Positions 1 through 49,455 of a DNA stretch of 52,793 nucleotides are shown here, piece after piece. The stretch is taken from positions 36,585-89,377 of the forward strand of contig MFRE01000009.1 of NCBI GenBank assembly GCA_001784475.1. The letters run 5' to 3'. The notes under the pieces are model-generated. The model saw nothing but the letters and a program-made list of their open reading frames with translations. It ran no database searches and was not told where the DNA came from. Positions within the stretch are counted from its first letter, which is position 1. Every line of letters starts with the position of its first letter. Origin of the DNA: Candidatus Magasanikbacteria bacterium RIFOXYD2_FULL_41_14. GTDB lineage: Bacteria; Patescibacteriota; Patescibacteriia; Magasanikbacterales; GWA2-37-8. Position numbers and translations under genes: made by a program.

Positions 1-169
1 CTGTAACTTTGAATTTTGCCACTTGAAACTTTGGTCAACTCGCGGTAAAATATCGGTGGCTAATGTAGGCGTGTCTACGGACGCGTCTCGCCTTTGTAAA
101 AGACTGCTTGCATCGTCCTTGGGTGAACGAATCATAAATTCAAGTCGCCACGTATTTATACAGCAACCG

Positions 170-343
170 GCCGGTTGGCCGCTTGTCCTTGCCTCGGAAT
201 GGAAGATGCAAAAGAAGCCCGTTTGTCCTCGGCTGGCAACCTCGTCAATGTTGGCAACTTCGACGCGGACGGCGCGAATGTCAACAACGACAGTCCGGAC
301 AACTCCAATGACAATCTCGGCGTTTCTTTCGCCCGAAGTCTTT
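170..343 (+). repeat. DGR template repeat (TR)-like segment (boundaries approximate)
   Basis: It lies just upstream of, and co-oriented with, the DGR-type RT. Its reading frame is open only after the stop at 124-126. It reads ...NLVNVGNFDADGANVNNDSPDNSNDNLGVSFARS, with 8 AAY codons between 247 and 315. This resembles the C-terminal C-type-lectin/FGE-like variable region of DGR targets. It has no long upstream ORF, so it looks like a template rather than a VR. Confidence 0.6.
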
Positions 344-344
344 G

Positions 345-367
345 TCCCCCGATATTAAGTCGGGGGA
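345..367 (+). other. GC-rich hairpin at the 3' end of the TR-like segment, overlapping the avd stop codon
   Basis: The stem tcccccga (345-352) pairs perfectly with tcggggga (360-367) around a 7-nt loop, tattaag. Confidence 0.6.
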
Positions 368-744
368 TTTGTTTGTCCGCCGTTGGTTTTTTTAATCCAG
401 CCACCGAGCATCCGTCCGATTTCCACGAGCGCGGCTACCAAATTCAAATAGCTTTTTTCATTAATGGCACGGACATCAAAACAAAGGCGAATAATTGTTT
501 TGAGTATTTTTAGTTTAAGGTCAATTTTTTGCAATAATTCTAATCGGGCGGTGACGCGAGCGGCATTGGCGAAAAATAACATTTCTAAAATTTCAATAGT
601 CAGCCCCTCGCATTTTGCTCCCAGCGCGAAGCGGTCGCGTTTGGGCAGTCGCGTCGTTACGCCGTAAAGTTGTTTATAAAAATCATAGGTTTTATGGATA
701 ATAGAGATTTCCGTGCTATTGTCGCGGGGGGGGGTAGTAGTCAT
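355..744 (-). CDS. avd: Accessory variability determinant (Avd)-like four-helix-bundle protein
   Basis: The protein is 129 aa. The C-terminal VEIGRMLGGWIKKTNGGQ resembles the Bordetella phage BPP-1 Avd tail (..EVGRILGSWIARVNRKGQ.., recalled from memory). LPKRDRFALG and the heptad-like helices fit the four-helix-bundle / 23S-IVS protein family. It lies adjacent to the DGR RT. Confidence 0.8.
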   Translation of the reverse strand: MTTTPPRDNSTEISIIHKTYDFYKQLYGVTTRLPKRDRFALGAKCEGLTIEILEMLFFANAARVTARLELLQKIDLKLKILKTIIRLCFDVRAINEKSYLNLVAALVEIGRMLGGWIKKTNGGQTNPPT

Positions 745-1704
745 AATTTATTTGATAAAATTATTTCCTTGCCTAATTTATTCCACGCTTGGCGCGAATT
801 TAAACGCGGCAAAATGAATAAAAGCGATGTTCAAAATTTTGCGTTAAATTTGGAGGATAATTTGTTTGATTTACATACTGATTTGCAGTCGGGGAATTAT
901 CGGCATTCACCTTACACGGATTTTTTCGTACGCGACCCTAAATTAAGACATATTTTTAAAGCCACGGTGCGCGACCGAGTACTACATCAGGCGGTCGTGT
1001 CAGCGCTTGAGCCGATATTTGATAATGGTTTTATCGCTAATTCGTATTCGTCGCGTTTGGGCAAAGGCACACATCGGGCGATATCGTGTCTGCGAAAAAA
1101 GGCCTGGCGGTTATCAAAAAATAATACTCGGACAGTGTGGATTTTACATGGCGATATTCGCCGATATTTTGATTCCGTTGACCATGAGATATTGTTGCGA
1201 TTAATTGAACGAAAAGTCGGTGATACTAATGTTTTAAATTTACTTACGGAAATTATCGGCAGTTATTCTACTGCCCCCGGCAAGGGCATCCCGCTCGGCA
1301 ATGTTACCAGCCAGTTATTTTCTAATATTTATTTAGACGAGTTTGATCAGTTTATCACAAGACATCTGGGGATTCAAGATTATATCCGCTATGCCGACGA
1401 TTTTGTCGTTATTAGTCGTAGCCAAATTTTTTTGGAAAGTATGATAACGCTTACGCGTAATTTTTTGAGCGAAAAATTAAAATTGGTTTTACATCCGGAT
1501 AAAATTGTTTTGCGCCGTTGGCACAGCGGGGTGGATTTTTTAGGGTATGTATTGTTTCCGCACCATAATATTTTGCGGACTAAAACTAAATGGCGGATGT
1601 TTAACAGAATAAATTCCAAAAATTTTATTTCTTATAGTGGGATGTTGAGACATTGTCGGTCGGCGCGTTTGCGCGCCGATTTATTACGAACGGTTGATTT
1701 ATAA
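694..1704 (+). CDS. DGR-type reverse transcriptase
   Basis: Motifs seen: NLFDKIISLPNLFHAWREFKRGK, RDRVLHQAV, SYSSRLGKGTH, GIPLGNVTSQLFSNIYLDEFD (the DGR-specific [IL]GxxxSQ motif), the IRYADDFVVIS YxDD box, and GVDFLGYVLFP. The ATG at 694 is preferred over the TTG at 670 used in the ORF track. Confidence 0.9.
   Translation: MDNRDFRAIVAGGGSSHNLFDKIISLPNLFHAWREFKRGKMNKSDVQNFALNLEDNLFDLHTDLQSGNYRHSPYTDFFVRDPKLRHIFKATVRDRVLHQAVVSALEPIFDNGFIANSYSSRLGKGTHRAISCLRKKAWRLSKNNTRTVWILHGDIRRYFDSVDHEILLRLIERKVGDTNVLNLLTEIIGSYSTAPGKGIPLGNVTSQLFSNIYLDEFDQFITRHLGIQDYIRYADDFVVISRSQIFLESMITLTRNFLSEKLKLVLHPDKIVLRRWHSGVDFLGYVLFPHHNILRTKTKWRMFNRINSKNFISYSGMLRHCRSARLRADLLRTVDL
726..734. repeat. G9/C9 homopolymer inside the overlapping 5' ends of avd and the RT
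   Basis: Nine consecutive G residues, counted from the sequence. The count agrees with both translations: AGGGSS in the RT and TPPR in Avd. Confidence 0.95.
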
Positions 1705-3349: not shown

Positions 3350-3390
3350 GTGGTATAATATAGTAGTAATAAAAAATAACTTTAAAATAT

Positions 3391-3672
3391 ATGAGATTGA
3401 ACGGCGACGAAGAACTGGGATGGTCAGTTTTAGGTCAGCCAAATACTGAAAAGCCCACCAGAGAATTACTAAATCAGGTGGTGTCTGGGTTGGTGGCGGA
3501 CACGACCGGAGATAGCGGTGTTGCGCCGGCCGCGCAATTTATTGCCGCTCACAAAGAATTGTGGGGAGAATTTGAAAAGGCGGTAAGAGCGGATATGGTG
3601 GGCAAAGAGCGTGCGGCCCAGGCCTTGCTGGCGGCAGTACTGAAAAATGTTATGAAATCGCCAGAAAATTGA
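3391..3672 (+). CDS. Hypothetical protein
   Basis: A 93-aa ORF in the operon orientation with no motif I recognise. Confidence 0.4.
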   Translation: MRLNGDEELGWSVLGQPNTEKPTRELLNQVVSGLVADTTGDSGVAPAAQFIAAHKELWGEFEKAVRADMVGKERAAQALLAAVLKNVMKSPEN

Positions 3673-4896: not shown

Positions 4897-5727
4897 ATGC
4901 CGAGTAATTTAATAAAAGAGCAAAAAAATGATAGCGCTGTTTCTACTTGTTGTGGCCAGTCAACTGTTTGGGGATATGATTTTGGTAAGAAAATATTGTG
5001 GACTTTTGCTGGGGTACTATTGGTGTACGCGATTTTTTGGCTGGGGACAATGGTGCGCAACAATATTAGGCAGTATGATTACATTGGACTGTCGCCCAAG
5101 AACGAGCGGATGATTACAATCAACGGTTATGGCAAGGTTAATAGCAACAATGATATTGCTGTTACAACGATTGGTTATTCAAACACTGATAAGGATGTAT
5201 CCAAAGCGCAGGCAGATAATAAAATTGTAATGGACCAGGTTTTAGCGGAATTAAAAACTATGGGAGTAGCGGATAAAGATTTACAAAGCAATTACACTAT
5301 TTATCCGGATTATAATTATACCCAAGACAAAGGCCAAGTATTGCAGGGTTATCGGGTTTCCAACCAATTGAACGTAAAAATTCGCGACCTAGACAAAGTG
5401 AGCGCAGTTTTGGGTTTGGCCGGTAAATACGGTGCTACCGAAGTTTCAGGTTTGACATTTACAATTGATGATCCTGAGAATTTGAAAGATGAAGCCCGAA
5501 TCAAAGCTCTGGCCGATGCTAAGAGCAAGGCCTTGCAATTGGCGCAAACTTTAAATGTCCGTTTGGGTGGCGTAGTATCATTTTCCGAATGGGATGCCAC
5601 AAACGGTGGTCCTTATCCGGTTTACAGCGCAATGGGAGCGGAGAAAGGTGGCGGTGAGCCGGGAGTTGCTTCTGGGAGCCAGGATGTCGGTATGAATGTT
5701 AGTGTAACTTACGAGATTTTGCAGTAA
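4897..5727 (+). CDS. SIMPL/DUF541 domain protein with N-terminal TM anchor
   Basis: GYRVSNQLNVKIRDLDKVSAVL..., ARIKALADAKSKALQLA and the overall layout match the SIMPL (26 kDa periplasmic immunogenic protein) family. Confidence 0.7.
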   Translation: MPSNLIKEQKNDSAVSTCCGQSTVWGYDFGKKILWTFAGVLLVYAIFWLGTMVRNNIRQYDYIGLSPKNERMITINGYGKVNSNNDIAVTTIGYSNTDKDVSKAQADNKIVMDQVLAELKTMGVADKDLQSNYTIYPDYNYTQDKGQVLQGYRVSNQLNVKIRDLDKVSAVLGLAGKYGATEVSGLTFTIDDPENLKDEARIKALADAKSKALQLAQTLNVRLGGVVSFSEWDATNGGPYPVYSAMGAEKGGGEPGVASGSQDVGMNVSVTYEILQ

Positions 5728-5751
5728 GATCGCTATTTAAGTAGTTTTTTT

Positions 5752-5781
5752 AAAAATCCGCCAAAGTTGGCGGGTTTTTGG
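5752..5781 (+). terminator. Intrinsic terminator after the SIMPL gene
   Basis: The hairpin tccgcc-aaagtt-ggcggg is followed by ttttt. Confidence 0.7.
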
Positions 5782-5847
5782 TCTGTTTGTATGTCTTTGA
5801 ATTGGCTAAAATAAGCCAAAATAATATTTTATCCACAGGGGGGGGTC

Positions 5848-5876
5848 TTGACAAAACCCCTAAAATGTGCTATAAT
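5848..5876 (+). promoter_or_regulatory. Consensus sigma70-type promoter
   Basis: TTGACA (5848-5853), a 17-nt spacer, then TATAAT (5871-5876). A G8 tract lies at 5838-5845, 2 nt upstream of the -35 hexamer. Confidence 0.7.
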
Positions 5877-6003
5877 GGCCAGTTCTGAAAAAATGGAAAT
5901 TTATTTACATTTTTGAGGAACGCCGCCATTTCAAGCGCCACTTATAATGGCCAGTTCTGAAAAAATGGAAATTTATTTACATTTTTGAGGAACGCCGCCA
6001 TTT
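5871..6003 (+). repeat. Two identical 61-nt direct repeats with a 72-nt period
   Basis: 5871-5931 and 5943-6003 are both tataatggccagttctgaaaaaatggaaatttatttacatttttgaggaacgccgccattt. An 11-nt spacer separates them. Each unit can fold as an imperfect long hairpin (aatggcc..gttc..aaaaatg / cattttt..gaac..gccatt). Confidence 0.95.
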
Positions 6004-6436
6004 TGAATATATTTGTTCTTTGTAAAATTGGTGACTGGCGTGTCTTTTACTGGAAGCGTGTAAACGTTTCTAATAAAAGGCGCGTTAGTTGCCTAAAATC
6101 TCTGCGGGCACAGCCCGCGGAGTTAATCCCGAGCCTCTCTTAGGCTCGGGATAATGCGCCGAATCGCGGCGCTTTGGGGCCGGGGTTTATCCCCGGCATT
6201 GCAGGGGGCCACCCTCGGTAGGGTGGTTGCTGAGTCGCTCTGCAGAGCGACGAAAGTATGGGGACAGAAGGGCCCCCCACCCGAAAAATTTGCCAAGAGT
6301 CCGAACGCGCGTGATGCTCACGCGCGTTCGGGCGACGGAGGGGAGGTGTTGCTTGAGGTGCTGTTGCCTCATGTACACCCCCCTCCGCCCTCTTTCCTCC
6401 CATATATTTTAAAGCGCCTATAGGCGCCTTTTTTTA
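5884..6436 (+). ncRNA. Unassigned structured non-coding RNA locus (repeat units, GC-rich multi-hairpin core at about 6097-6400, terminator)
   Basis: There is no credible ORF. A consensus promoter lies upstream and an intrinsic terminator at the 3' end. The core is a GC-rich island in AT-rich DNA with at least 8 hairpins: 6100-6122, 6128-6150, 6156-6172, 6179-6197, 6209-6226, 6234-6251, 6301-6331 and 6331-6389. The 5' end is inferred from the promoter only. Confidence 0.5.
6414..6436 (+). terminator. Intrinsic terminator closing the non-coding locus
   Basis: The hairpin gcgcc-tata-ggcgc is followed by c and T7 (6429-6435). Confidence 0.8.
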
Positions 6437-6482
6437 TTTTCAAAAAGATGTTATAATACCTCAAACTTTATAATCATTAATT

Positions 6483-7730
6483 ATGAAAATTAAGCAAATT
6501 TTGGCTCGGGAAATTTTGGACTCACGCGGTAATCCTACAGTTGAAGCTAAAGTAATTTTGGTAAATGGCATAGTTGCGGTCGCAAAAGCGCCATCGGGCG
6601 CATCTACTGGCTCACACGAGGCACGTGAACTCCGCGATGGTGGTAAGCGTTATGGTGGTAAAGGCGTTTTGTGGGCTGTAAAAAATGTCAATTCTATTAT
6701 TGCCAAGAAATTGGTTGGTTTTGATGTGGAAGATTTGGTCGCTTTGGATCAAATGATGATAAATCTGGATGGCACTAAAAATAAATCTAATTTGGGCGCA
6801 AATGCCACGACCGCGGTATCAATGGCCTTGGCCCGCGTTGGCGCGGCTGCGAATCGCCAGCCACTTTATTTATATTTACGCAAAACTTTTGGTTTGAAAG
6901 AAAAAGAGTATCGTTTGCCCACGCCGATGATGAATATTTTAAATGGGGGACGACATGCGGACAACGGTCTTTCGGTGCAGGAATTTATGATTGTGCCTAA
7001 GAATAAACTTTTTCGGGAGCAAGTACGCATGGGTTCACAGGTATTTCATGCTTTAGAAAATATTTTGGCGCAGAAGGGATACTCAGTTGCTGTTGGCGAC
7101 GAAGGTGGATTTGCTCCGCAGTTATTAAATAATGAGCGCGCTTTGCAGGTAATTGTTGAAGCGATTAAATATACTGGCTGGGTGCCGGGTAAGCAAATAT
7201 TTTTAGGAGTTGATGTCGCCTCTTCTGAATTTTATCATAAAGATAGTTATTATTTTGTCAGCAAAAAACAGGGCTGGCGCGCGGATAAAATGATTACCAC
7301 TTATGCCACTTGGCTTAAAAAATACCCATTAATTTTGATTGAGGACGGTTTAGCGGAAGATGATTGGGCAAATTGGCAGATTATGACTAAAGAGTTGGGT
7401 AAAAAATCACTGCTTATAGGTGATGATTTATTTACCACTAATGTTAATCGTTTAGAGCGGGGGGTAAAAGAAAAAGTAGCTAATGCGATTTTAATTAAAC
7501 CAAATCAGATTGGTACTTTGACTGAAACAATGCAGACGATTAATTTGGCCAAGAAGTCTGGGTATCAAGTGGTAATATCACATCGTAGCGGGGAGACCGC
7601 CGACACCTTTATTGCAGATTTAGCCGTTGCTGTTAATGCCGACTTTATCAAAACCGGTTCGCTGTCGCGATCCGAACGAGTGGAAAAATACAATCGGTTG
7701 ATGGAAATTGAATTGGAACTGGGACGGTAA
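6483..7730 (+). CDS. eno: Enolase
   Basis: The N-terminus ILAREILDSRGNPTVEAKV, plus SHRSGETAD and IKPNQIGTLTET. Confidence 0.97.
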   Translation: MKIKQILAREILDSRGNPTVEAKVILVNGIVAVAKAPSGASTGSHEARELRDGGKRYGGKGVLWAVKNVNSIIAKKLVGFDVEDLVALDQMMINLDGTKNKSNLGANATTAVSMALARVGAAANRQPLYLYLRKTFGLKEKEYRLPTPMMNILNGGRHADNGLSVQEFMIVPKNKLFREQVRMGSQVFHALENILAQKGYSVAVGDEGGFAPQLLNNERALQVIVEAIKYTGWVPGKQIFLGVDVASSEFYHKDSYYFVSKKQGWRADKMITTYATWLKKYPLILIEDGLAEDDWANWQIMTKELGKKSLLIGDDLFTTNVNRLERGVKEKVANAILIKPNQIGTLTETMQTINLAKKSGYQVVISHRSGETADTFIADLAVAVNADFIKTGSLSRSERVEKYNRLMEIELELGR

Positions 7731-7747
7731 ATTATATTTAAATTATT

Positions 7748-9349
7748 ATGATACGAGAAAAGAACATTCCTATTAAGAAAAAGCGTGGAAGAGTAAGTAA
7801 AATCGATCGTTCGCCAGTCGCTTTGATTATTTTAGATGGTTTTGGTTTAGGTAAAGTTGATGATCCTGGCAATGCCATTACTCCCACAACTGCTCCCAAC
7901 ATTTTTTCTTATTTTAAAAAATACGCTCATTCCACTTTAAAAACTTACGGGCAATATGCCGGTTTATTTATCGGGCAAGTAGGTAATTCCGAGGCTGGGC
8001 ATTTAAATATTGGCGCCGGCCGGATTGTTAAACAAGATTTAGTGATAATTTCCGAAGCGATTCATAACGGTACTTTTTTTAAGAACACTGCTTTTAAAGA
8101 TGCTTTGTTTCACACCAAAAAACATAATTCTGCCGTTCATTTAATGGGGCTTTTGACAGATGGTAATAGCGCGCACGCTTATCCAGAACATTTATACGCG
8201 CTGTTGGAGCTGTGTCGCGATTTTGGACAAAAAAAAGTTTATTTGCATTTGTTTACCGATGGTCGTGATTCTTCACCACATAGTGCTTTGCAGTTTTTGC
8301 GCGTTTTGCGCACACATATGTTGGAAAACGAAAAAGTGGCTACGATTATGGGGCGGTTTTACGGCATGGATCGAAATAAAATTTGGAGTCGTACCAAAAT
8401 GGCGTATGAGGCCATTACCGCTGGTAAGGGGAATTTTGCCAAGTCGGCCGAAGAGGCATTAAGTCAGGCGTATAACCGTGGTGAAACCGATGAATATGTA
8501 ATGCCAACTATTATTACAAAATCTGGCAAACCCATTGCCACCATTCAAGACAATGACGCGGTTATTTTTTTTAACGCGCGTAGCGATCGCGCCCGCGAAA
8601 TAACCAAATCATTAGTTCAAGAAGATTTTACTCAAAAAAATCCTGGTTCATTTAATCGTCGCCATAACCCCAAGAATCTTCGGTTTGTGGCTTTAACTGA
8701 TTTTGGGCCGGATTTACCGGGCGTATTAACGGCTTTCCCTAGTTCTGATATTAAGAATTGTTTGCCGCTCGCGGTGGGCGAAAAATATCGGCAATTATAT
8801 ATTTCCGAAACTGAAAAATTTGCCCATGTTACCTATTTTATTAATGGCGGTTTTGCCGATCCTTTAGATGGCGAAGAAAGAGAACTAGTTAAATCGGAAC
8901 CAGTGCGTTCGTATGCTGATAAACCGGAAATGAGTTGTCGCCTTATTAGCCGTAAAATTTGTAATTATTTAAAAAAAGATAAATATAATTTTATTGTGGT
9001 TAATTTTCCCAATGCCGATATGGTGGGGCATACTGGAAACTTGGACGCCGCCAAAAAAGCAGTAAAAATAATGGATACTGAAGTGGGTAGAGTAGTGGAA
9101 ATGATTTTGAAAAAAAATGGGGTGGCTTTGATTACCGCCGACCATGGCAACGCTGATGTTATGATCAACTTTGATACCAAAGAAATGATGACGGAACACA
9201 CGGAAAATTCAGTGCCCTGTATTTTAATTTCTAAAAAGTGTATGTTGAAACGTTTAAAAAATGGTATTTTAGCTGATGTCGCACCGACACTATTAAAAAT
9301 TATGGGCATTAAAAAACCCAAAGAAATGACGGGAAAATCGTTGTGTTAA
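7748..9349 (+). CDS. gpmI: 2,3-bisphosphoglycerate-independent phosphoglycerate mutase, paralogue 1
   Basis: LIILDGFG, GNSEAGHLNIGAGR (catalytic Ser), NADMVGHTG and TADHGNAD. It carries a basic N-terminal extension of about 20 aa. Confidence 0.9.
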   Translation: MIREKNIPIKKKRGRVSKIDRSPVALIILDGFGLGKVDDPGNAITPTTAPNIFSYFKKYAHSTLKTYGQYAGLFIGQVGNSEAGHLNIGAGRIVKQDLVIISEAIHNGTFFKNTAFKDALFHTKKHNSAVHLMGLLTDGNSAHAYPEHLYALLELCRDFGQKKVYLHLFTDGRDSSPHSALQFLRVLRTHMLENEKVATIMGRFYGMDRNKIWSRTKMAYEAITAGKGNFAKSAEEALSQAYNRGETDEYVMPTIITKSGKPIATIQDNDAVIFFNARSDRAREITKSLVQEDFTQKNPGSFNRRHNPKNLRFVALTDFGPDLPGVLTAFPSSDIKNCLPLAVGEKYRQLYISETEKFAHVTYFINGGFADPLDGEERELVKSEPVRSYADKPEMSCRLISRKICNYLKKDKYNFIVVNFPNADMVGHTGNLDAAKKAVKIMDTEVGRVVEMILKKNGVALITADHGNADVMINFDTKEMMTEHTENSVPCILISKKCMLKRLKNGILADVAPTLLKIMGIKKPKEMTGKSLC

Positions 9350-9429: not shown

Positions 9430-11022
9430 ATGTCTTATAAACCGGTAGTGTTAACAATTTTTGATGGTTTGGGTGTGGCGCCGCCAGGTGAAGGCAACGC
9501 CGTGACGCTGGCTGTTATGAAAAACTTTAACAAATTTATCAAAGAGTATCCAGTGATGACTTTATTTGCCGCTGGCAATGAAGTCGGTCTTATGTTTGGT
9601 GAAATGGGCAACTCTGAAGTTGGCCATTTGAATATTGGCGCTGGCCGAGTGTATTATCAATCATGCCCGCGTATTAATCAAACCATCAGTGATGGTTCTT
9701 TTTTTACCAATCCGGCGCTTTTGAAAGCAATTATTCAAGCTAAAGAGAAAAAAACTAATTTGCATTTAATTGGTTTATTGTCGGCCGGCAATATTCACGC
9801 GAGTGAATCACATCTGTATGCTTTATTGGATTTATGTCGCCAGTACAAATTATCTTCCACTTTAAATAATCGAGTTTTTGTACATGTAATTCTGGACGGG
9901 CGCGATGCTCCCTATAACTCTGGAGCTGATTTTGTGCGGCGTTTGCAAGATAAGATGAATAGTTTGAAAGTCGGCAAGATTGCTTCTTTATCCGGTCGTT
10001 ATTATGCCATGGACCGTGACAATCGGTGGGATCGTGTAGAAAAGGCCTATCGCGCGATGGCTCTGGGGGAATCTGATCGCATTTCCGACGATCCAATTAA
10101 AGCAATTTTGGATTCGTATGAAAAAAAAGTTTTTGATGAAGAATTTATTCCGACTGTCATAACGAAGCGAGGCGCGCCAGTGGCCACTTTTAAAGAGGGG
10201 GATGCTGCCATTTTTTTTAACTTTCGGCCTGACCGAGCGCGCCAACTAACTAAGGCCTTTGTGCTTCCTGGTTTTGATAAATTTGAACGTCCTTATTTAC
10301 GCGATTTGTGTTTTGTAACCATGTCTGAATATGAAAAAGATTTACCTGTGTCCGGTGTTGCTTTCAATCCTTTGGTAGTAGTTAACAGTTTGGCCGAAAC
10401 TATTAGTAAGGCGGGTAAAAAACAATTTCATTTGGCCGAAACTGAAAAATATGCGCATGTTACTTATTTTTTAAATGGGGCAGTTGAGGACGCGTTCCCC
10501 GGGGAGGACCGATCACTTATCCCTTCTCCCCAAGTATCCAGTTATAACGAAGCGCCCGAGATGTCGGCGGCCTTAGTGGCTAAGGAGGCGGCGAAAGCTA
10601 TAGATAGTGGCAAATATGATTTTGTAGTGGTGAATTTGGCCAATCCTGATATGGTGGGGCATACTGGTGATTTAGCCGCGACTGTGAGGGGTTGCGAAGC
10701 GGCTGATAAGGCATTTGGCAATATTGTCGATCATACCTTAGCCGTGGGAGGCGTAGTAGTAATGACAGCCGATCATGGTAATTCCGAGGAAGTAATAAAT
10801 TTTCAAACTGGCGATATTGATAAAGAGCATACCACTAATCCGGTACCTTTACTTATTATTGGCAAGGATTTTCAAGGCCAAGCTGGGCCGGCTGGTGATC
10901 CGCCAGAAGGAGATTTGTCTTTAATGCATCCGGTAGGAGTTTTGGCTGATATCGCGCCAACAGTTTTAAAATTAATGGGCGTGGAGAAGCCGGGGGAGAT
11001 GACGGGAACGTCACTTATTTAA
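9430..11022 (+). CDS. gpmI: 2,3-bisphosphoglycerate-independent phosphoglycerate mutase, paralogue 2
   Basis: LTIFDGLG, GNSEVGHLNIGAGR, NPDMVGHTG and TADHGNSE. Confidence 0.92.
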   Translation: MSYKPVVLTIFDGLGVAPPGEGNAVTLAVMKNFNKFIKEYPVMTLFAAGNEVGLMFGEMGNSEVGHLNIGAGRVYYQSCPRINQTISDGSFFTNPALLKAIIQAKEKKTNLHLIGLLSAGNIHASESHLYALLDLCRQYKLSSTLNNRVFVHVILDGRDAPYNSGADFVRRLQDKMNSLKVGKIASLSGRYYAMDRDNRWDRVEKAYRAMALGESDRISDDPIKAILDSYEKKVFDEEFIPTVITKRGAPVATFKEGDAAIFFNFRPDRARQLTKAFVLPGFDKFERPYLRDLCFVTMSEYEKDLPVSGVAFNPLVVVNSLAETISKAGKKQFHLAETEKYAHVTYFLNGAVEDAFPGEDRSLIPSPQVSSYNEAPEMSAALVAKEAAKAIDSGKYDFVVVNLANPDMVGHTGDLAATVRGCEAADKAFGNIVDHTLAVGGVVVMTADHGNSEEVINFQTGDIDKEHTTNPVPLLIIGKDFQGQAGPAGDPPEGDLSLMHPVGVLADIAPTVLKLMGVEKPGEMTGTSLI

Positions 11023-11023
11023 T

Positions 11024-11140
11024 TGTCATTGCGACCCGCCTTGGGCGGGGAAGCAATCTCTCGTTGCCTGCCCCGTAGTGAACGAAAGGCGTTCTACTAC
11101 TGGGGTCATTGCGACCGAGTCGTAACGAGGTAAAGAAATC
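11024..11140. repeat. Cluster of short GC-rich palindromic repeat units (GTCATTGCGAC ... GAAGCAATCT family)
   Basis: gtcattgcgac occurs at 11025-11035 and again at 11105-11115. The cccgcc-ttg-ggcggg hairpin is at 11035-11049 and gaagcaatct at 11050-11059. A second hairpin, ccccgtagtg...tactactgggg, follows. Related motifs recur at 41791-41812 and 42298-42375. Confidence 0.7.
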
Positions 11141-18208: not shown

Positions 18209-18217
18209 TCATTTAAC

Positions 18218-18284
18218 TGTCATCCTGAACTTGTTTCAGGATCCCACGCTATCTAAGAGATGCTGAAATAAATTCAGCATGACA
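18218..18284. repeat. MITE-like 67-bp element with terminal inverted repeats and two internal hairpins
   Basis: The termini are tgtcatcctgaa (18218-18229) and ttcagcatgaca (18273-18284). The internal hairpins are cctgaa-cttgt-ttcagg (18224-18240) and gctgaa-ataaa-ttcagc (18262-18278). Confidence 0.7.
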
Positions 18285-18290
18285 ATATAT

Positions 18291-28579: not shown

Positions 28580-28663
28580 GCGCGGGTGGCGAAACTGGTA
28601 GACGCACTACCTTGAGGTGGTAACGCCCGCAAGGGCATGGAGGTTCGAGTCCTCTCCCGCGCA
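28580..28663 (+). tRNA. tRNA-Leu (GAG)
   Basis: The acceptor stem is gcgcggg/cccgcgc, the anticodon loop is ttGAGgt, and the T-arm is ggagg-ttcgagt-cctct. There is a long variable arm. CCA is not encoded. Confidence 0.9.
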
Positions 28664-28701
28664 CGAGCGACCCAATAGTTTGGATTTATAAACTTATTCC
28701 T

Positions 28702-32207: not shown

Positions 32208-32213
32208 ATAAGA

Positions 32214-32243
32214 TTTATGTCCGTACACGTGTACGGACATAAA
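32214..32243. repeat. Perfect 30-nt palindrome, copy 1 of 3 (core ATGTCCGTACACGTGTACGGACAT)
   Basis: tttatgtccgtacacgtgtacggacataaa, 7 nt after the stop of the upstream gene. Confidence 0.95.
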
Positions 32244-32256
32244 ATTTAGTAAAATT

Positions 32257-41695: not shown

Positions 41696-42916
41696 GTGTT
41701 ACTCGCCATCGAAGCCAGCCACGCTGTTAAAACACCCCGCACGGGTGTGGAAGAAGCGTGTTGGCAGATGATTAAAAATTTATCCGACTTAGGCGGGCCC
41801 GCCTCGGGCGGAAAGTCAACTCTACCTGCGGACACGCGGGTTATTTTGTATAGTCATAAAATGCCTGATGACAAAAGTATGTCCGTACACGTGTACGGAC
41901 ATAAGTTTAATGAATTGCCTACAAATTGGGAGTGGAAAATTTTAAATTGGCCAGTAAAAAAACTTTGGAGTCAATTTCGTCTGTCATACGAATTATTTAA
42001 AAATCCGCCGGATGTTTTTTTTGCAGTTGGGCAATTATTACCATTTTTTTTACCTAAAAAAATAAAAGTAATTACTTTTGTCCACGACAGTGCGTTTGAA
42101 GCCGAACCGAATGCGTATAGTTTATTGGGAAAAATTTATTTAAAACTGATGAACCGCCGGATTGTGGCTCGCAGTGATAAAATTATTACATCCACGGAAT
42201 TTAATAAAAAAGAATTGCTAAAATATTATCAGGTTGCGTCGGAAAAAGTTGTGGTAGTTCCGCTTGCTTATGATGCCAATGTTTTTTGCATGGATTTGTC
42301 ATCGCGAGAAGCACGGCGACGAAGCAATCTATCATTTGATCAACAGAGAGATTGTTGCACTTCGCTCGCAATGATAAATAAACCATATTTTATTTATCTT
42401 GGCCGTTTGGAGGAAAAGAAAAATACTGCTTTGCTCGTGCGCGCTTTTGATCAAACACGTGCTAGTGGAGTTGACTGCCAGTTGGTATTGGTAGGCAAAT
42501 TTGGTAAACTTTCAGCAGATGTTCGCACCGCCTTGGTAGATAGTCCATATAAAAAAGACATCATTGTCCCGGGTTATGTTAAGTCAGAAGATTTACCTGG
42601 CCTAATGTGCGGGGCGCTCGCTCTGGTGTTTCCTTCCCGCTATGAGGGTTTTGGTATGCCGATTTTGGAAAGTATGGCTTGTGGCACGCCAGTAATTGTC
42701 AGTGATATTCCGGCCTTGCGGGAGGTGGGTGGATCAGCTATAACCTATATTTGTCCTAAAATTGCTGATTTGGCGCTGGCAATGGCCCAAGCAGCGAAAG
42801 ATCCAGTTTGGCGTGAAAATCATCGCCTAGCCGGCTTAGAACGGGTAAAAAGTTACTCCTGGACTAAAACAGCTGAAATCTTGGGCAGAGAGATTGCCAA
42901 AACCCGTTTATTTTGA
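41696..42916 (+). CDS. Family 1 (GT4) glycosyltransferase carrying three in-frame repeat-element-like segments
   Basis: PYFIYLGRLEEKKN and FPSRYEGFGMPILESMACGTPVI (EX7E region). It has a GTG start. The N-domain is about 30-40 aa longer than usual. Confidence 0.85.
   Translation: MLLAIEASHAVKTPRTGVEEACWQMIKNLSDLGGPASGGKSTLPADTRVILYSHKMPDDKSMSVHVYGHKFNELPTNWEWKILNWPVKKLWSQFRLSYELFKNPPDVFFAVGQLLPFFLPKKIKVITFVHDSAFEAEPNAYSLLGKIYLKLMNRRIVARSDKIITSTEFNKKELLKYYQVASEKVVVVPLAYDANVFCMDLSSREARRRSNLSFDQQRDCCTSLAMINKPYFIYLGRLEEKKNTALLVRAFDQTRASGVDCQLVLVGKFGKLSADVRTALVDSPYKKDIIVPGYVKSEDLPGLMCGALALVFPSRYEGFGMPILESMACGTPVIVSDIPALREVGGSAITYICPKIADLALAMAQAAKDPVWRENHRLAGLERVKSYSWTKTAEILGREIAKTRLF
41791..41812. 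repeat. GC-rich palindromic unit (GGCGGGCCCGCCTCGGGCGG) inside the GT4 CDS
   Basis: It is related to cccgccttgggcggg at 11035-11049 and translates to GGPASGG. Confidence 0.7.
41878..41903. repeat. Perfect 26-nt palindrome, copy 2 of 3, in-frame inside the GT4 CDS
   Basis: tatgtccgtacacgtgtacggacata translates to (S)MSVHVYGH(K). Confidence 0.95.
42298..42375. repeat. ~78-bp imperfect inverted-repeat element in-frame inside the GT4 CDS
   Basis: The left arm is gtcatcgcgagaagc..gaagcaatct and the right arm is agagattg..cttcgctcgcaatgat. The termini are of the same GTCAT(T/C)GCGA(C/G) / GAAGCAATCT family as 11024-11140. It translates to SSREARRRSNLSFDQQRDCCTSLAMI. Confidence 0.7.
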
Positions 42917-48087: not shown

Positions 48088-49365
48088 ATGCACGAAATAA
48101 AAAAACTAAAAAACGGTTTACAATACATTTACATTCCAAACTCCGGTACGAGCGCCGTGACGGTTTTGCTTTTGTTTCCAATTGGTTCGCGCTATGAAAC
48201 GCGACCAATTTCCGGCATCTCGCATTTTTTAGAACACATGTTGTTTAAGGGCACAAAAAAACGTCCGGACTACCTGGCCATATCGCGCGAGTTAGACGCG
48301 GCCGGAGCGGATTATAACGCTTTTACTTATAAGGATTATACAGGTTATTATGTTAAAATCGGGGCATCAATGGTAGGCAAGGCGTTTGATATAATTTCGG
48401 ATATTTCATTTAATTCCACGATGCCGGCTAAAGAAGTGGAGAAAGAAAAGGGTGTGATAGTGGAAGAGCTGCGAATGTATGAAGATAGCCCGATGCACGC
48501 CATTGAACTCGTATTTGACCGTTTAATGTTTCCTAACCACCCGCTGGGATGGGATGTTGGTGGTAATGAAAAGACAGTGCGGGCGATTACTCGCGCACAA
48601 CTTTTAAATTATTATCACGATCACTATAGTCCGCAAAAGGCGGTTTTAGTGGTCGCCGGAAATTTAAGCAAAGAAGATTTGGAAAAAAATCTGGAAAAAT
48701 TTGCCTTGGCTACTTCCAAAAATCCGGCCGAACCGAAATATTTACCGTTTAAATTTAAAGATAATTTGTCGCTGTCTGAGCGGGTGGCCGTCCAGCCCAG
48801 AAAAATTGATCAAGTGCAAATGATAATGGGTTTCCACGGGGTAGCTCATAGTGATAAACGGAGCTATGCGGCCGCGGTATTATTAACAATTTTGGGCGGA
48901 GGGATGAGCTCGCGTTTATTTGTGGAAGTGCGCGAAAAGCGTGGTTTGGCCTATATGGTGCGTGCTGGCTCTTGGCCTTATCGCGATGTTGGGTCGGTTT
49001 ATGTGCAGGCCGGTTTGGACCCGAAACGTTTACCAGCGGCTTTGAGAACCATTAAAGTGGAACTTAAAAAAATTGCCACGAAAGCTGTAAGCAAAAAAGA
49101 ACTGGCTGATGCCAAAACCAGTTTAGTGGGCAGAATGGATTTGGCATTGGAGGATTCCTCGGTGATGGCTGAACGCGCGGCCAAGCAATTTATTTTCTTG
49201 GGTGACGCTCTCACTGCCGCCGAAGTCGCACGGCGTGTGAATGAAGTGACGGCCAAAGATGTGCTCGCTTTAGCTAAAGAGTTGTTTAAGGTAAAAGAAA
49301 TGCACTTGGCAGTAATTGGGCCAGTTAAAAAAGAAGATGTTTTGAAAATGTTAAAAAATAAGTAA
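48088..49365 (+). CDS. M16 family (pitrilysin-like) zinc peptidase
   Basis: GISHFLEHMLFKGT (HxxEH) and the downstream EE..R pattern. Confidence 0.88.
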   Translation: MHEIKKLKNGLQYIYIPNSGTSAVTVLLLFPIGSRYETRPISGISHFLEHMLFKGTKKRPDYLAISRELDAAGADYNAFTYKDYTGYYVKIGASMVGKAFDIISDISFNSTMPAKEVEKEKGVIVEELRMYEDSPMHAIELVFDRLMFPNHPLGWDVGGNEKTVRAITRAQLLNYYHDHYSPQKAVLVVAGNLSKEDLEKNLEKFALATSKNPAEPKYLPFKFKDNLSLSERVAVQPRKIDQVQMIMGFHGVAHSDKRSYAAAVLLTILGGGMSSRLFVEVREKRGLAYMVRAGSWPYRDVGSVYVQAGLDPKRLPAALRTIKVELKKIATKAVSKKELADAKTSLVGRMDLALEDSSVMAERAAKQFIFLGDALTAAEVARRVNEVTAKDVLALAKELFKVKEMHLAVIGPVKKEDVLKMLKNK

Positions 49366-49367
49366 AT

Positions 49368-49397
49368 TTTATGTCCGTACATGTGTACGGACATAAA
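49368..49397. repeat. 30-nt palindrome, copy 3 of 3 (one central C-to-T difference)
   Basis: tttatgtccgtacaTgtgtacggacataaa, 3 nt after the M16 peptidase stop. Confidence 0.95.
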
Positions 49398-49455
49398 GTT
49401 AAGCGACAAAATTATATTGGTTTTGACCATTGGGAAGCGATTAAATTATTAAAAA

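Follow-up and report, generated by a model that had tools for sequence, protein, structure and literature searches.

The locus between SIMPL and eno

The window, i.e., the whole 52.8-kb stretch of Magasanikbacteria DNA that was analysed (Patescibacteria, an assignment supported by the flanking proteins), carries a SIMPL gene at 4897-5727 and, downstream of it, the enolase gene eno. The original prediction had placed a GC-rich island in AT-rich DNA between these two genes, and both the gene context and the island were recovered. The GC content across 6100-6399 amounts to 0.63 compared to approximately 0.36-0.46 in the flanks, and the highest 150-nt GC peak of the window (0.66) is located in this block. 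For 6097-6436 the GC content is 61-66% vs. 40%, making it the most GC-rich stretch of the window, and the block’s GC content of 61% is within the range of the window’s tRNA genes (51-65%). The extent of the unit had to be revised: 6097 had been taken as its start, but the structured unit begins farther upstream, the GC block represents its 3′ two-thirds, and a consensus promoter located 220 nt upstream of 6097 had been missed. The upstream half comprises the following features:

5750-5781, + strand: T1, the intrinsic terminator of SIMPL, AAAAATCCGCC-AAAGTT-GGCGGGTTTTT, found by the terminator scan on both strands
5837-5844, + strand: poly-G tract 3 nt 5′ of the -35 hexamer, G8 here and G9 in the JGI contig L001
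5848-5876, + strand: sigma-70 promoter TTGACA-17-TATAAT with TG-extended -10 element (TGcTATAAT), matching at 12 of 12 positions
5871-5931 and 5943-6003, + strand: a 61-nt direct repeat in two identical copies, with 11 nt of unique filler between them
6030-6094, + strand: H1, a 65-nt hairpin of 29 bp with 8 G·U pairs and one C·A mismatch

The T1 sequence reads as a terminator in both directions and sits within the lineage-specific insertion described below. As predicted from the sequence, it stops SIMPL transcription ahead of the unit’s promoter, and the unit is followed by its terminator T2 and then by the promoter of eno. Promoters with a 12/12 match were found only three times when both strands of the window were scanned (105.6 kb), and another of these sites directly precedes the L10 leader of the rplJL ribosomal protein operon. 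Since such a match is rare and shared with the L10 operon, the promoter is of the grade used in this genome for highly expressed genes. Transcription would start at approximately 5881-5884, and no credible ORF was found downstream of this promoter. An imperfect hairpin of 40 nt lies within each of the 61-nt repeats of the leader (5882-5921 and 5954-5993). The leader is polymorphic by a 72-nt indel: the repeat is present in two copies in the window and in contigs L001, L005 and L097 and in one copy in L002, and two Logan contigs end inside the repeat. This polymorphism suggests weak constraint.

The hairpin H1 is stable as RNA of the + strand only (-40.8 kcal/mol, z -10.1, vs. -16.3 kcal/mol for the - strand). 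The excess of 8 G·U pairs over a single C·A mismatch has a p value of ~0.02 by our own binomial estimate under symmetric decay, for a pattern that was noticed post hoc, and points to RNA-level selection or to a transcription-coupled mutation bias on the + strand. In its length, H1 should suffice as a substrate of RNase III.

Structure and coding potential of the GC-rich block

Downstream of H1, the block consists of eight GC-rich hairpins (6100-6387), each of which differs from the others, followed by a tail, the terminator and the promoter of eno:

6100-6122, + strand: H2, a 10-bp hairpin with one G·U pair and the loop ACA
6126-6152, + strand: H3, a perfect 11-bp hairpin with the loop CTCTT (inverted-repeat scan)
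6156-6172, + strand: H4, a perfect 6-bp hairpin
6179-6197, + strand: H5, a perfect 7-bp hairpin
6207-6228, + strand: H6, a 9-bp hairpin of 7 perfect pairs and 2 G·U pairs with the loop CGGT
6234-6251, + strand: H7, a perfect 18-nt palindrome with a 7-bp stem and the loop TGCA (inverted-repeat scan)
6252-6298, + strand: junction, largely unpaired in the predicted folds, with the C-rich run CCCCCCACCCG at 6273-6283
6299-6333, + strand: H8, a 16-bp hairpin (14 pairs perfect) with the loop TGC (inverted-repeat scan)
6336-6387, + strand: H9, a bulged 21-bp stem-loop (-36.7 kcal/mol, z -5.6)
6390-6413, + strand: C/U-rich 3′ tail CCCUCUUUCCUCCCAUAUAUUUUAAA, anti-Shine-Dalgarno-like, with weak pairing predicted
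6414-6436, + strand: T2, the intrinsic terminator closing the unit (terminator scan)
6448-6456, + strand: extended -10 promoter of eno itself, TGtTATAAT, conserved in relatives

All hairpins named in the original prediction are present, some of them longer than had been proposed. The 7-bp stems at 6179-6197 and 6234-6251 are exact, and the bulged long stem expected at 6331-6389 was found at 6336-6387. The hairpin placed at 6128-6150 exists, but instead of 8 bp it comprises 11 perfect base pairs at 6126-6152. The 14-bp stem at 6301-6331 forms the core of H8, and G-C and U·G extensions bring it to 16 bp at 6299-6333. A long-range helix between 6204-6210 and 6271-6277 had also been proposed; the two segments are indeed complementary, but the helix is absent from both the minimum free energy (MFE) and the centroid structure, leaving it as a possible pairing only. 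MFE and centroid disagree on the pairing of the junction 6252-6298, and its C-rich run is, by these fold models, a candidate partner in a long-range helix of 6204-6210 or of the 3′ tail.

The density of hairpins is far above that of shuffled sequences. The block contains 7 perfect Watson-Crick hairpins of at least 6 bp with a total of 58 bp, compared to a mean of 0.56 hairpins (3.6 bp) and a maximum of 3 in 500 dinucleotide shuffles. Its + strand folds with an MFE of -194 kcal/mol (z = -10.3), a value reached by none of 100 shuffles, and for 5880-6440 a z-score of -15.3 was obtained. The two strands of the GC block alone are nearly symmetric (-183 vs. -175 kcal/mol; 6 vs. 5 G·U pairs). Several of the block’s hairpins form perfect palindromes whose loops are 3 nt long or themselves palindromic, and neither GNRA nor UNCG tetraloops were found among the hairpin loops. 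Perfect stems together with such loops are a trait of DNA palindromes more often than of evolved RNA.

That the block is noncoding was borne out by searches in all six reading frames, with the two longest ORFs as queries and the remaining four frames joined into one further query. Against 5.8 billion proteins and 1.8 billion cluster representatives, only the window’s own ORFs were returned, and the block’s ORFs had no hits in Pfam. As a side observation, the GC-rich block misleads gene callers, as an 87-aa minus-strand ‘protein’ is annotated on the block (JGI, ENA).

Homology searches and origin of the insert

The block was predicted to belong to no known RNA family, and the searches agree with this. 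Rfam 15 yielded no family at the gathering score over 5700-6500, the models including RNase P, tmRNA, SRP, 6S, OLE, ROOL, GOLLD, raiA, HEARO, riboswitches and IS605-orfB motifs. At E ≤ 10, only terminator- or miRNA-like noise was obtained (best 26 bits vs. 55), among the large structured ncRNAs only Ms1 gave a hit, with 13 bits vs. a gathering score of 162, and ARAGORN detected no tmRNA. On inspection by eye, the RNase P motifs ACAGAA and GAGUCCG are both present, but their order is wrong and GAGUCCG is locked in H8, so that RNase P was rejected. A retron msr-msd ncRNA was likewise discarded: the downstream gene encodes enolase, and the sole reverse transcriptase (RT) lies 4.4 kb upstream as part of a diversity-generating retroelement (DGR).

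Conservation in relatives had been named as a check on the functional-RNA claim, and its absence weakens that claim: in the synteny set of 79 GTDB loci around SIMPL (1.3 Mb), searches with nhmmer, blastn, tblastx and a covariance model built on 6026-6200 gave no hit beyond the window, and the covariance model added only two weak matches, both on the minus strand of the query region itself. Phage and plasmid collections (BLAST, distant mode) and IMG/VR, the latter searched with three 20-22-mers, gave no match. A single 20-mer (6252-6271) searched against JGI metagenome contigs, a collection without the window’s own contig, gave 3 chance hits (one unrelated AT-rich contig). Other GC islands in the relatives were also considered; the one in L013, which was fully read, is a small gene, and none of the others passed a scan for the density of perfect hairpins. 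The literature on ncRNAs of the Candidate Phyla Radiation (CPR) and on the MITE repeat described below provided nothing relevant.

The alternative that the hairpins are multi-copy, REP-like elements was not supported, as neither the block nor its hairpins have a second copy in ~67 kb of the same genome (the window plus 14 kb of flanks, of a genome of roughly 1 Mb). No repeat of the block longer than 14 nt was found in the window or in the 14 kb of added flanks, and REP/BIME elements were rejected because no palindrome of the block is dispersed in these ~67 kb. The same methods do detect repeats of this clade: a 26-nt palindrome was recovered three times in the window, and for a MITE repeat 10 exact 12-mer hits were obtained in the related loci, showing that dispersed repeats of such kind were detectable.

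The comparison with relatives also reveals how the locus arose. The gene order PGK-SIMPL-eno-iPGM is conserved among relatives, and in ~50 related species the SIMPL-eno spacer measures 80-190 nt. In the closest relative found (78% identity in SIMPL) it comprises 87 nt, and this entire spacer, consisting of terminator, extended -10 promoter of eno and 5′ UTR, aligns to 6410-6485 of the window with a score of 49 compared to 20.8 ± 3.3 for shuffles (maximum 31). This alignment identifies 5728 to ~6409 as an insert and T2 as the ancestral SIMPL terminator. The original prediction had given the block its own terminator; the terminator at 6414-6436 is real, but it is the ancestral one of SIMPL and not the block’s own. 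Judged from the aligned sequences, the ~680 nt between SIMPL and eno are a lineage-specific insertion. No convincing direct repeat was found at its boundaries. The promoter of eno is retained downstream of T2, indicating that eno need not depend on the upstream unit.

Among the data searched, the block is confined to one groundwater Magasanikbacteria population, whose contigs are >99.9% identical and among which the block is invariant; this genome is present in JGI 3300025088 and in ENA ERZ28563792 and ERZ28563808 (BioSample SAMN03842452). It was assembled independently at least 5 times, always in this context, which argues against a chimera. All contigs carrying the block are genomic, and there are no transcript-like contigs among them. 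By its distribution, the unit is young or foreign, and the clade does not need it.

Moreover, on comparison of the loci, the SIMPL-eno spacer is an insertion hotspot, having received at least 4 kinds of insert, independently, in different Magasanikbacteria. In L009 it contains two small minus-strand genes and in L047 a receiver-domain gene, and in L017, L025 and L063 palindromic MITEs with TGTCATT..GA.. terminal inverted repeats (TGTCATTnnGAnn ... nnTCnnAATGACA) are located between the promoter and the ATG of eno. The MITE of L017 (1038-1310) carries a cargo of ~200 nt of nested GC-rich hairpins (66% GC, z -11.5). Copies of this family are present in the window at 11024, 15343, 18217 and 42364, some of its members likewise with GC-rich hairpin cargo (e.g., 11024 to ~11130, 18217-18286 and 42290-42376), and none of them brackets 5728-6440. 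The block as a member of the TGTCATT..GA.. MITE family was rejected, as the family’s terminal repeats do not flank 5728-6440; no terminal inverted repeats of another clear kind were found around the block either, only weak AT-rich pairs. Two further lineage-specific inserts lie within 8 kb, a 93-aa ORF placed between the S11 peptidase gene and PGK, and the DGR, inserted between scpA and scpB 4.4 kb upstream of the block. The DGR consists of:

694-1704: RT
355-582, - strand: bAvd
216-341: TR

Its VR, found in L097, lies at the end of a 590-aa target gene, and BLAST revealed no similarity of the block to TR or VR.

A proposed orphan noncoding transcription unit and competing readings

The single best reading is a discrete noncoding transcript, based on the promoter, the lack of coding capacity, the + strand stem, the tRNA-like GC content and the layout of terminator, promoter, body and terminator. 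According to this reading, to which we assign a probability of roughly 45%, the insertion of 5728 to ~6409 would have created an independent noncoding transcription unit between SIMPL and eno, and the unit is probably an RNA gene. Transcription would be initiated by the consensus promoter at 5848-5876 near position 5882, and the RNA would cross the AT-rich leader with its 5′ stem-loop, present in one or two copies depending on the allele, continue via the 29-bp G·U-rich stem (6030-6094) into the eight GC-rich hairpins (6100-6387) and stop at 6414-6436, where the ancestral terminator of SIMPL would have been co-opted. A very stable RNA would result, with a length of ~480 nt for the one-copy allele or ~550 nt for the two-copy allele. 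RNase III may cut the 29-bp stem and thereby release a GC-rich body of ~340 nt, which might act in trans as a stable protein-binding scaffold or decoy. Alternatively, the unpaired C-rich stretches 6273-6283 and 6390-6403 might pair with G-rich ribosome-binding sites, similar to the motifs of RoxS/RsaE.

In silico, the unit is supported by its promoter, its terminator, its non-coding character, the extreme folding, the strand-specific stem and its status as a derived insertion, while production of the RNA itself we can only infer. Of the features that define sRNA and ncRNA genes, the unit possesses its own promoter and an intrinsic terminator and lacks coding potential, and conservation or covariation in relatives was not found among the 79 loci. 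An RNA function is weakened by the orphan status, the near strand symmetry of the block, the loops resembling those of DNA palindromes and the polymorphic leader. Prediction of sRNA targets over 49 translation-initiation regions gave as best candidate the neighbouring 93-aa ORF with a perfect match of 14 nt (-15.7 kcal/mol); it was rejected as a chance match with a z-score of only -2.85.

The original prediction had left open whether the block is a functional RNA not yet described or a nest of palindromic elements; the promoter and H1 back the RNA side, but the lack of conservation and the near strand symmetry speak against a functional RNA. We consider it nearly as likely as the noncoding RNA unit that the block is a selfish or neutral DNA palindrome nest, either left behind or carried by palindromic mobile elements or consisting of GC-rich noncoding DNA taken up from a different organism. 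It would have landed in a spacer tolerant of insertions, its transcription would be incidental and its RNA functionless. The same spacer was independently invaded by palindromic MITEs in L017, L025 and L063, with a similar GC-rich hairpin cargo in L017, and the window’s genome harbours this MITE family, some of its copies with such cargo. An almost strand-symmetric GC block, its orphan and lineage-specific nature and the two additional lineage-specific inserts within 8 kb, the DGR and the 93-aa ORF, fit such an origin as well. However, terminal inverted repeats of the MITE type or of another clear kind are lacking, the hairpins are mutually different and none of them recurs in ~67 kb of the genome or in 1.3 Mb of relatives, and a palindrome nest leaves the consensus promoter and the G·U-rich + strand stem unexplained.

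It is improbable that the unit acts in cis as a long leader or attenuator of eno, in which the strong promoter would feed eno whenever an alternative fold bypasses T2. The unit stops 47 nt short of the eno start codon, pairing is possible between GGCGCUUU (6168-6175) and AAAGCGCC (6411-6418) and would sequester the 5′ arm of T2, the T2 hairpin is absent from the MFE structure of 6090-6440 while being present in the centroid and in the MFE structure of 6026-6440, and structured inserts are tolerated in the 5′ UTR of eno in relatives. However, eno has its own conserved extended -10 promoter 3′ of T2 and is regulated without the unit in ~50 related species, no riboswitch, T-box or leader family of Rfam matches, and any RNA of this size is expected to have alternative folds of similar energy. 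Still less credit is given to a decayed or orphan protein gene of foreign GC-rich origin, represented by an 87-aa ORF on the - strand or an 89-aa ORF on the + strand. Although the former is called in the JGI and ENA annotations and small GC-rich genes were inserted in relatives, in L009 at this spacer and in L013 at a different site, the ORFs overlap in several frames, have an Arg/Pro/Gly-rich nonsense composition, lack a Shine-Dalgarno sequence and have no homolog in any frame beyond the window’s own ORFs, with Pfam blank; 7 perfect hairpins within 340 nt are also hard to reconcile with a coding sequence. The least probable reading makes the block an accessory of the DGR, be it a template or target repeat at a distance, an ncRNA associated with the RT or a cDNA that the RT inserted. 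It draws on the DGR being itself a lineage-specific insert only 4.4 kb upstream, but the block resembles neither TR nor VR, five housekeeping genes lie in between, and the RT already has TR, VR and Avd adjacent to it.

As for known systems, the unit shares with OLE, ROOL, GOLLD, raiA, 6S and Ms1 a length of several hundred nucleotides, a noncoding nature, GC enrichment in an AT-rich genome, dense folding, its own promoter and terminator and the absence of an adjacent partner gene. However, these RNAs occur in many genera with covariation support, whereas the unit occurs in one population with none, and it consists of simple, mostly perfect hairpins lined up one after another, in contrast to the ornate multi-junction folds of the large ncRNA families. 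The GC hairpin nests of the Magasanikbacteria MITEs, including the L017 cargo, resemble the block in being lineage-specific, in using the same spacer and in their extreme folding z-scores, but the block lacks the family’s terminal repeats and any sequence similarity, its hairpins are serial and not nested, and it has a dedicated promoter. With REP/BIME elements the block has in common short GC-rich extragenic palindromes clustered at the 3′ end of a gene; REP units, however, hardly differ from each other and are scattered over a genome in tens to hundreds of copies, whereas the block’s eight hairpins all differ and none recurs in ~67 kb. Similar to phage ‘moron’ cassettes, the unit is autonomous from promoter to terminator, atypical in GC content and located between genes that are adjacent in relatives, but its cargo is noncoding, it resides in a chromosomal glycolysis cluster and not in a prophage, and its terminator is borrowed from a host gene. 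Finally, the sRNAs of the RoxS/RsaE type with C-rich motifs presumably resemble the unit in having unpaired C-rich stretches beside stable hairpins and a terminator; the unit differs in being three to five times longer, in having no homology that was found and in having no significant predicted target.

The unit fits no described family, and what can be claimed is a new orphan case of a generic kind, either a structured ncRNA unit or a palindrome-rich intergenic insert. It is a sound lead for transcriptome mapping and not a demonstrated new RNA. A more far-reaching proposal, which we regard as doubtful, is that the unit might be the first seen representative of a hitherto undescribed RNA class of CPR/Patescibacteria, whose large (~0.5 kb) structured RNAs would be acquired horizontally and expressed strongly. 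It would be a ‘noncoding moron’ whose precursor would be cut at the 29-bp RNase III-type stem to give a trans-acting body of ~340 nt. In the tiny genomes of CPR/Patescibacteria, hardly any regulatory RNAs have been described. If the unit is not expressed, the block still documents an insertion hotspot between SIMPL and eno and palindrome nests that mislead gene callers. If it is expressed, a streamlined episymbiont would have acquired and kept a 0.5-kb noncoding gene with a promoter of ribosomal protein grade inside its glycolysis cluster, and the unit would be a candidate for a new RNA class.

Variation in the promoter region and the annotation of the hairpin block

The promoter region preceding the GC-rich hairpin block (window 6097-6436) varies within the population: the poly-G tract 5' of the -35 hexamer (window 5837-5844) occurs as G8 or G9, and a 72-nt segment (window 5932-6003), consisting of a 61-nt repeat and the 11-nt filler CAAGCGCCACT, is either present or absent. 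Logan assemblies end inside the 61-nt repeat. On the block itself, the public JGI and ENA annotations place an 87-aa 'protein' (window 6140-6403, minus strand), which is without homolog and can almost certainly be put down to an artefact of gene calling.

In its 3' tail, CAUAUAUUUUAAAG (window 6401-6414), the block carries a 14-nt perfect complement of window 3380-3393, covering the 5' UTR and AUG of a 93-aa ORF. This pairing was the best among the 49 start regions tested (-15.7 kcal/mol); since its z value is only -2.85, it is probably a chance match. The 93-aa ORF (window 3391-3672) is flanked by the S11 peptidase and PGK genes, reaches a GC content of 60%, has its own promoter (TGgTATAAT, around window 3350) and yielded no Pfam match. 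In the closest relative the ORF is missing and the gap between S11 peptidase and PGK comprises only 61 nt; the ORF is therefore another lineage-specific insert.

Mobile elements and further genes

Between scpA and scpB, which adjoin each other in the relatives, a diversity-generating retroelement is inserted (window 1-1704). It continues beyond the left end of the window and spans 5926-9396 in L097, a contig of the same population.

Components of the retroelement (window positions)
Ends at about 6: target gene, 590 aa, with the variable repeat (VR) at its 3' end
216-341: template repeat, 126 nt, 84% identical to the VR
355-582, minus strand: accessory gene bAvd
694-1704: reverse transcriptase

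Magasanikbacteria furthermore share a MITE-like family of elements bounded by terminal inverted repeats some 35 nt long (TGTCATTCTGAGCGAAGCGAAGAATCTCTGTC ... GACAGAGATCCTTC..CTCAGGATGACA, with variants such as TGTCATTGCGAGC or TGTCATTTCGACC), whose cargo ranges from about 20 nt up to a GIY-YIG-like ORF, the latter assigned by eye only and putatively carried at L066 ~547-950. Insertions of this family have occurred repeatedly in the stretch that separates the eno promoter from the start codon of that gene.

Copies of the MITE-like family (L numbers denote compared contigs)
Window: 11024 to ~11130; 15343; 18217-18286; 42290-42376 (minus)
L017: 1038-1310
L021: 7196
L025: ~10925-11020
L028: 8855 (minus)
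L042: 3894; 7464
L061: 690 (minus)
L063: 1931; ~10865-10965
L066: 547; 17543
L068: 12670 (minus)

A 26-nt perfect palindrome, TATGTCCGTACA(C/T)GTGTACGGACATA, flanked by A/T runs, occurs three times in the window (32209-32249, 41871-41911 and 49363-49403) and may represent a small family of REP-like elements, bidirectional terminators or operators. Two tandem paralogs of iPGM, the cofactor-independent phosphoglycerate mutase (window 7748-9349 and 9430-11022), share DNA stretches of 70-81% identity, and their duplication is common to the window and the relatives. The Rfam tRNA model gives 47 bits for an 85-nt tRNA-like gene (window 28580-28664), to which ARAGORN can assign no anticodon ('tRNA-???').

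GC-rich genes inserted in relatives

Relatives carry inserted small GC-rich genes of about 105-111 aa, with no Pfam hit on record.

Small GC-rich genes
L009/L014 4988-5656, minus strand: SIMPL-eno spacer
L013 16654-16971, minus strand

One pair occupies the same spacer as the hairpin block. These insertions show that GC-rich DNA of foreign origin repeatedly enters these genomes.
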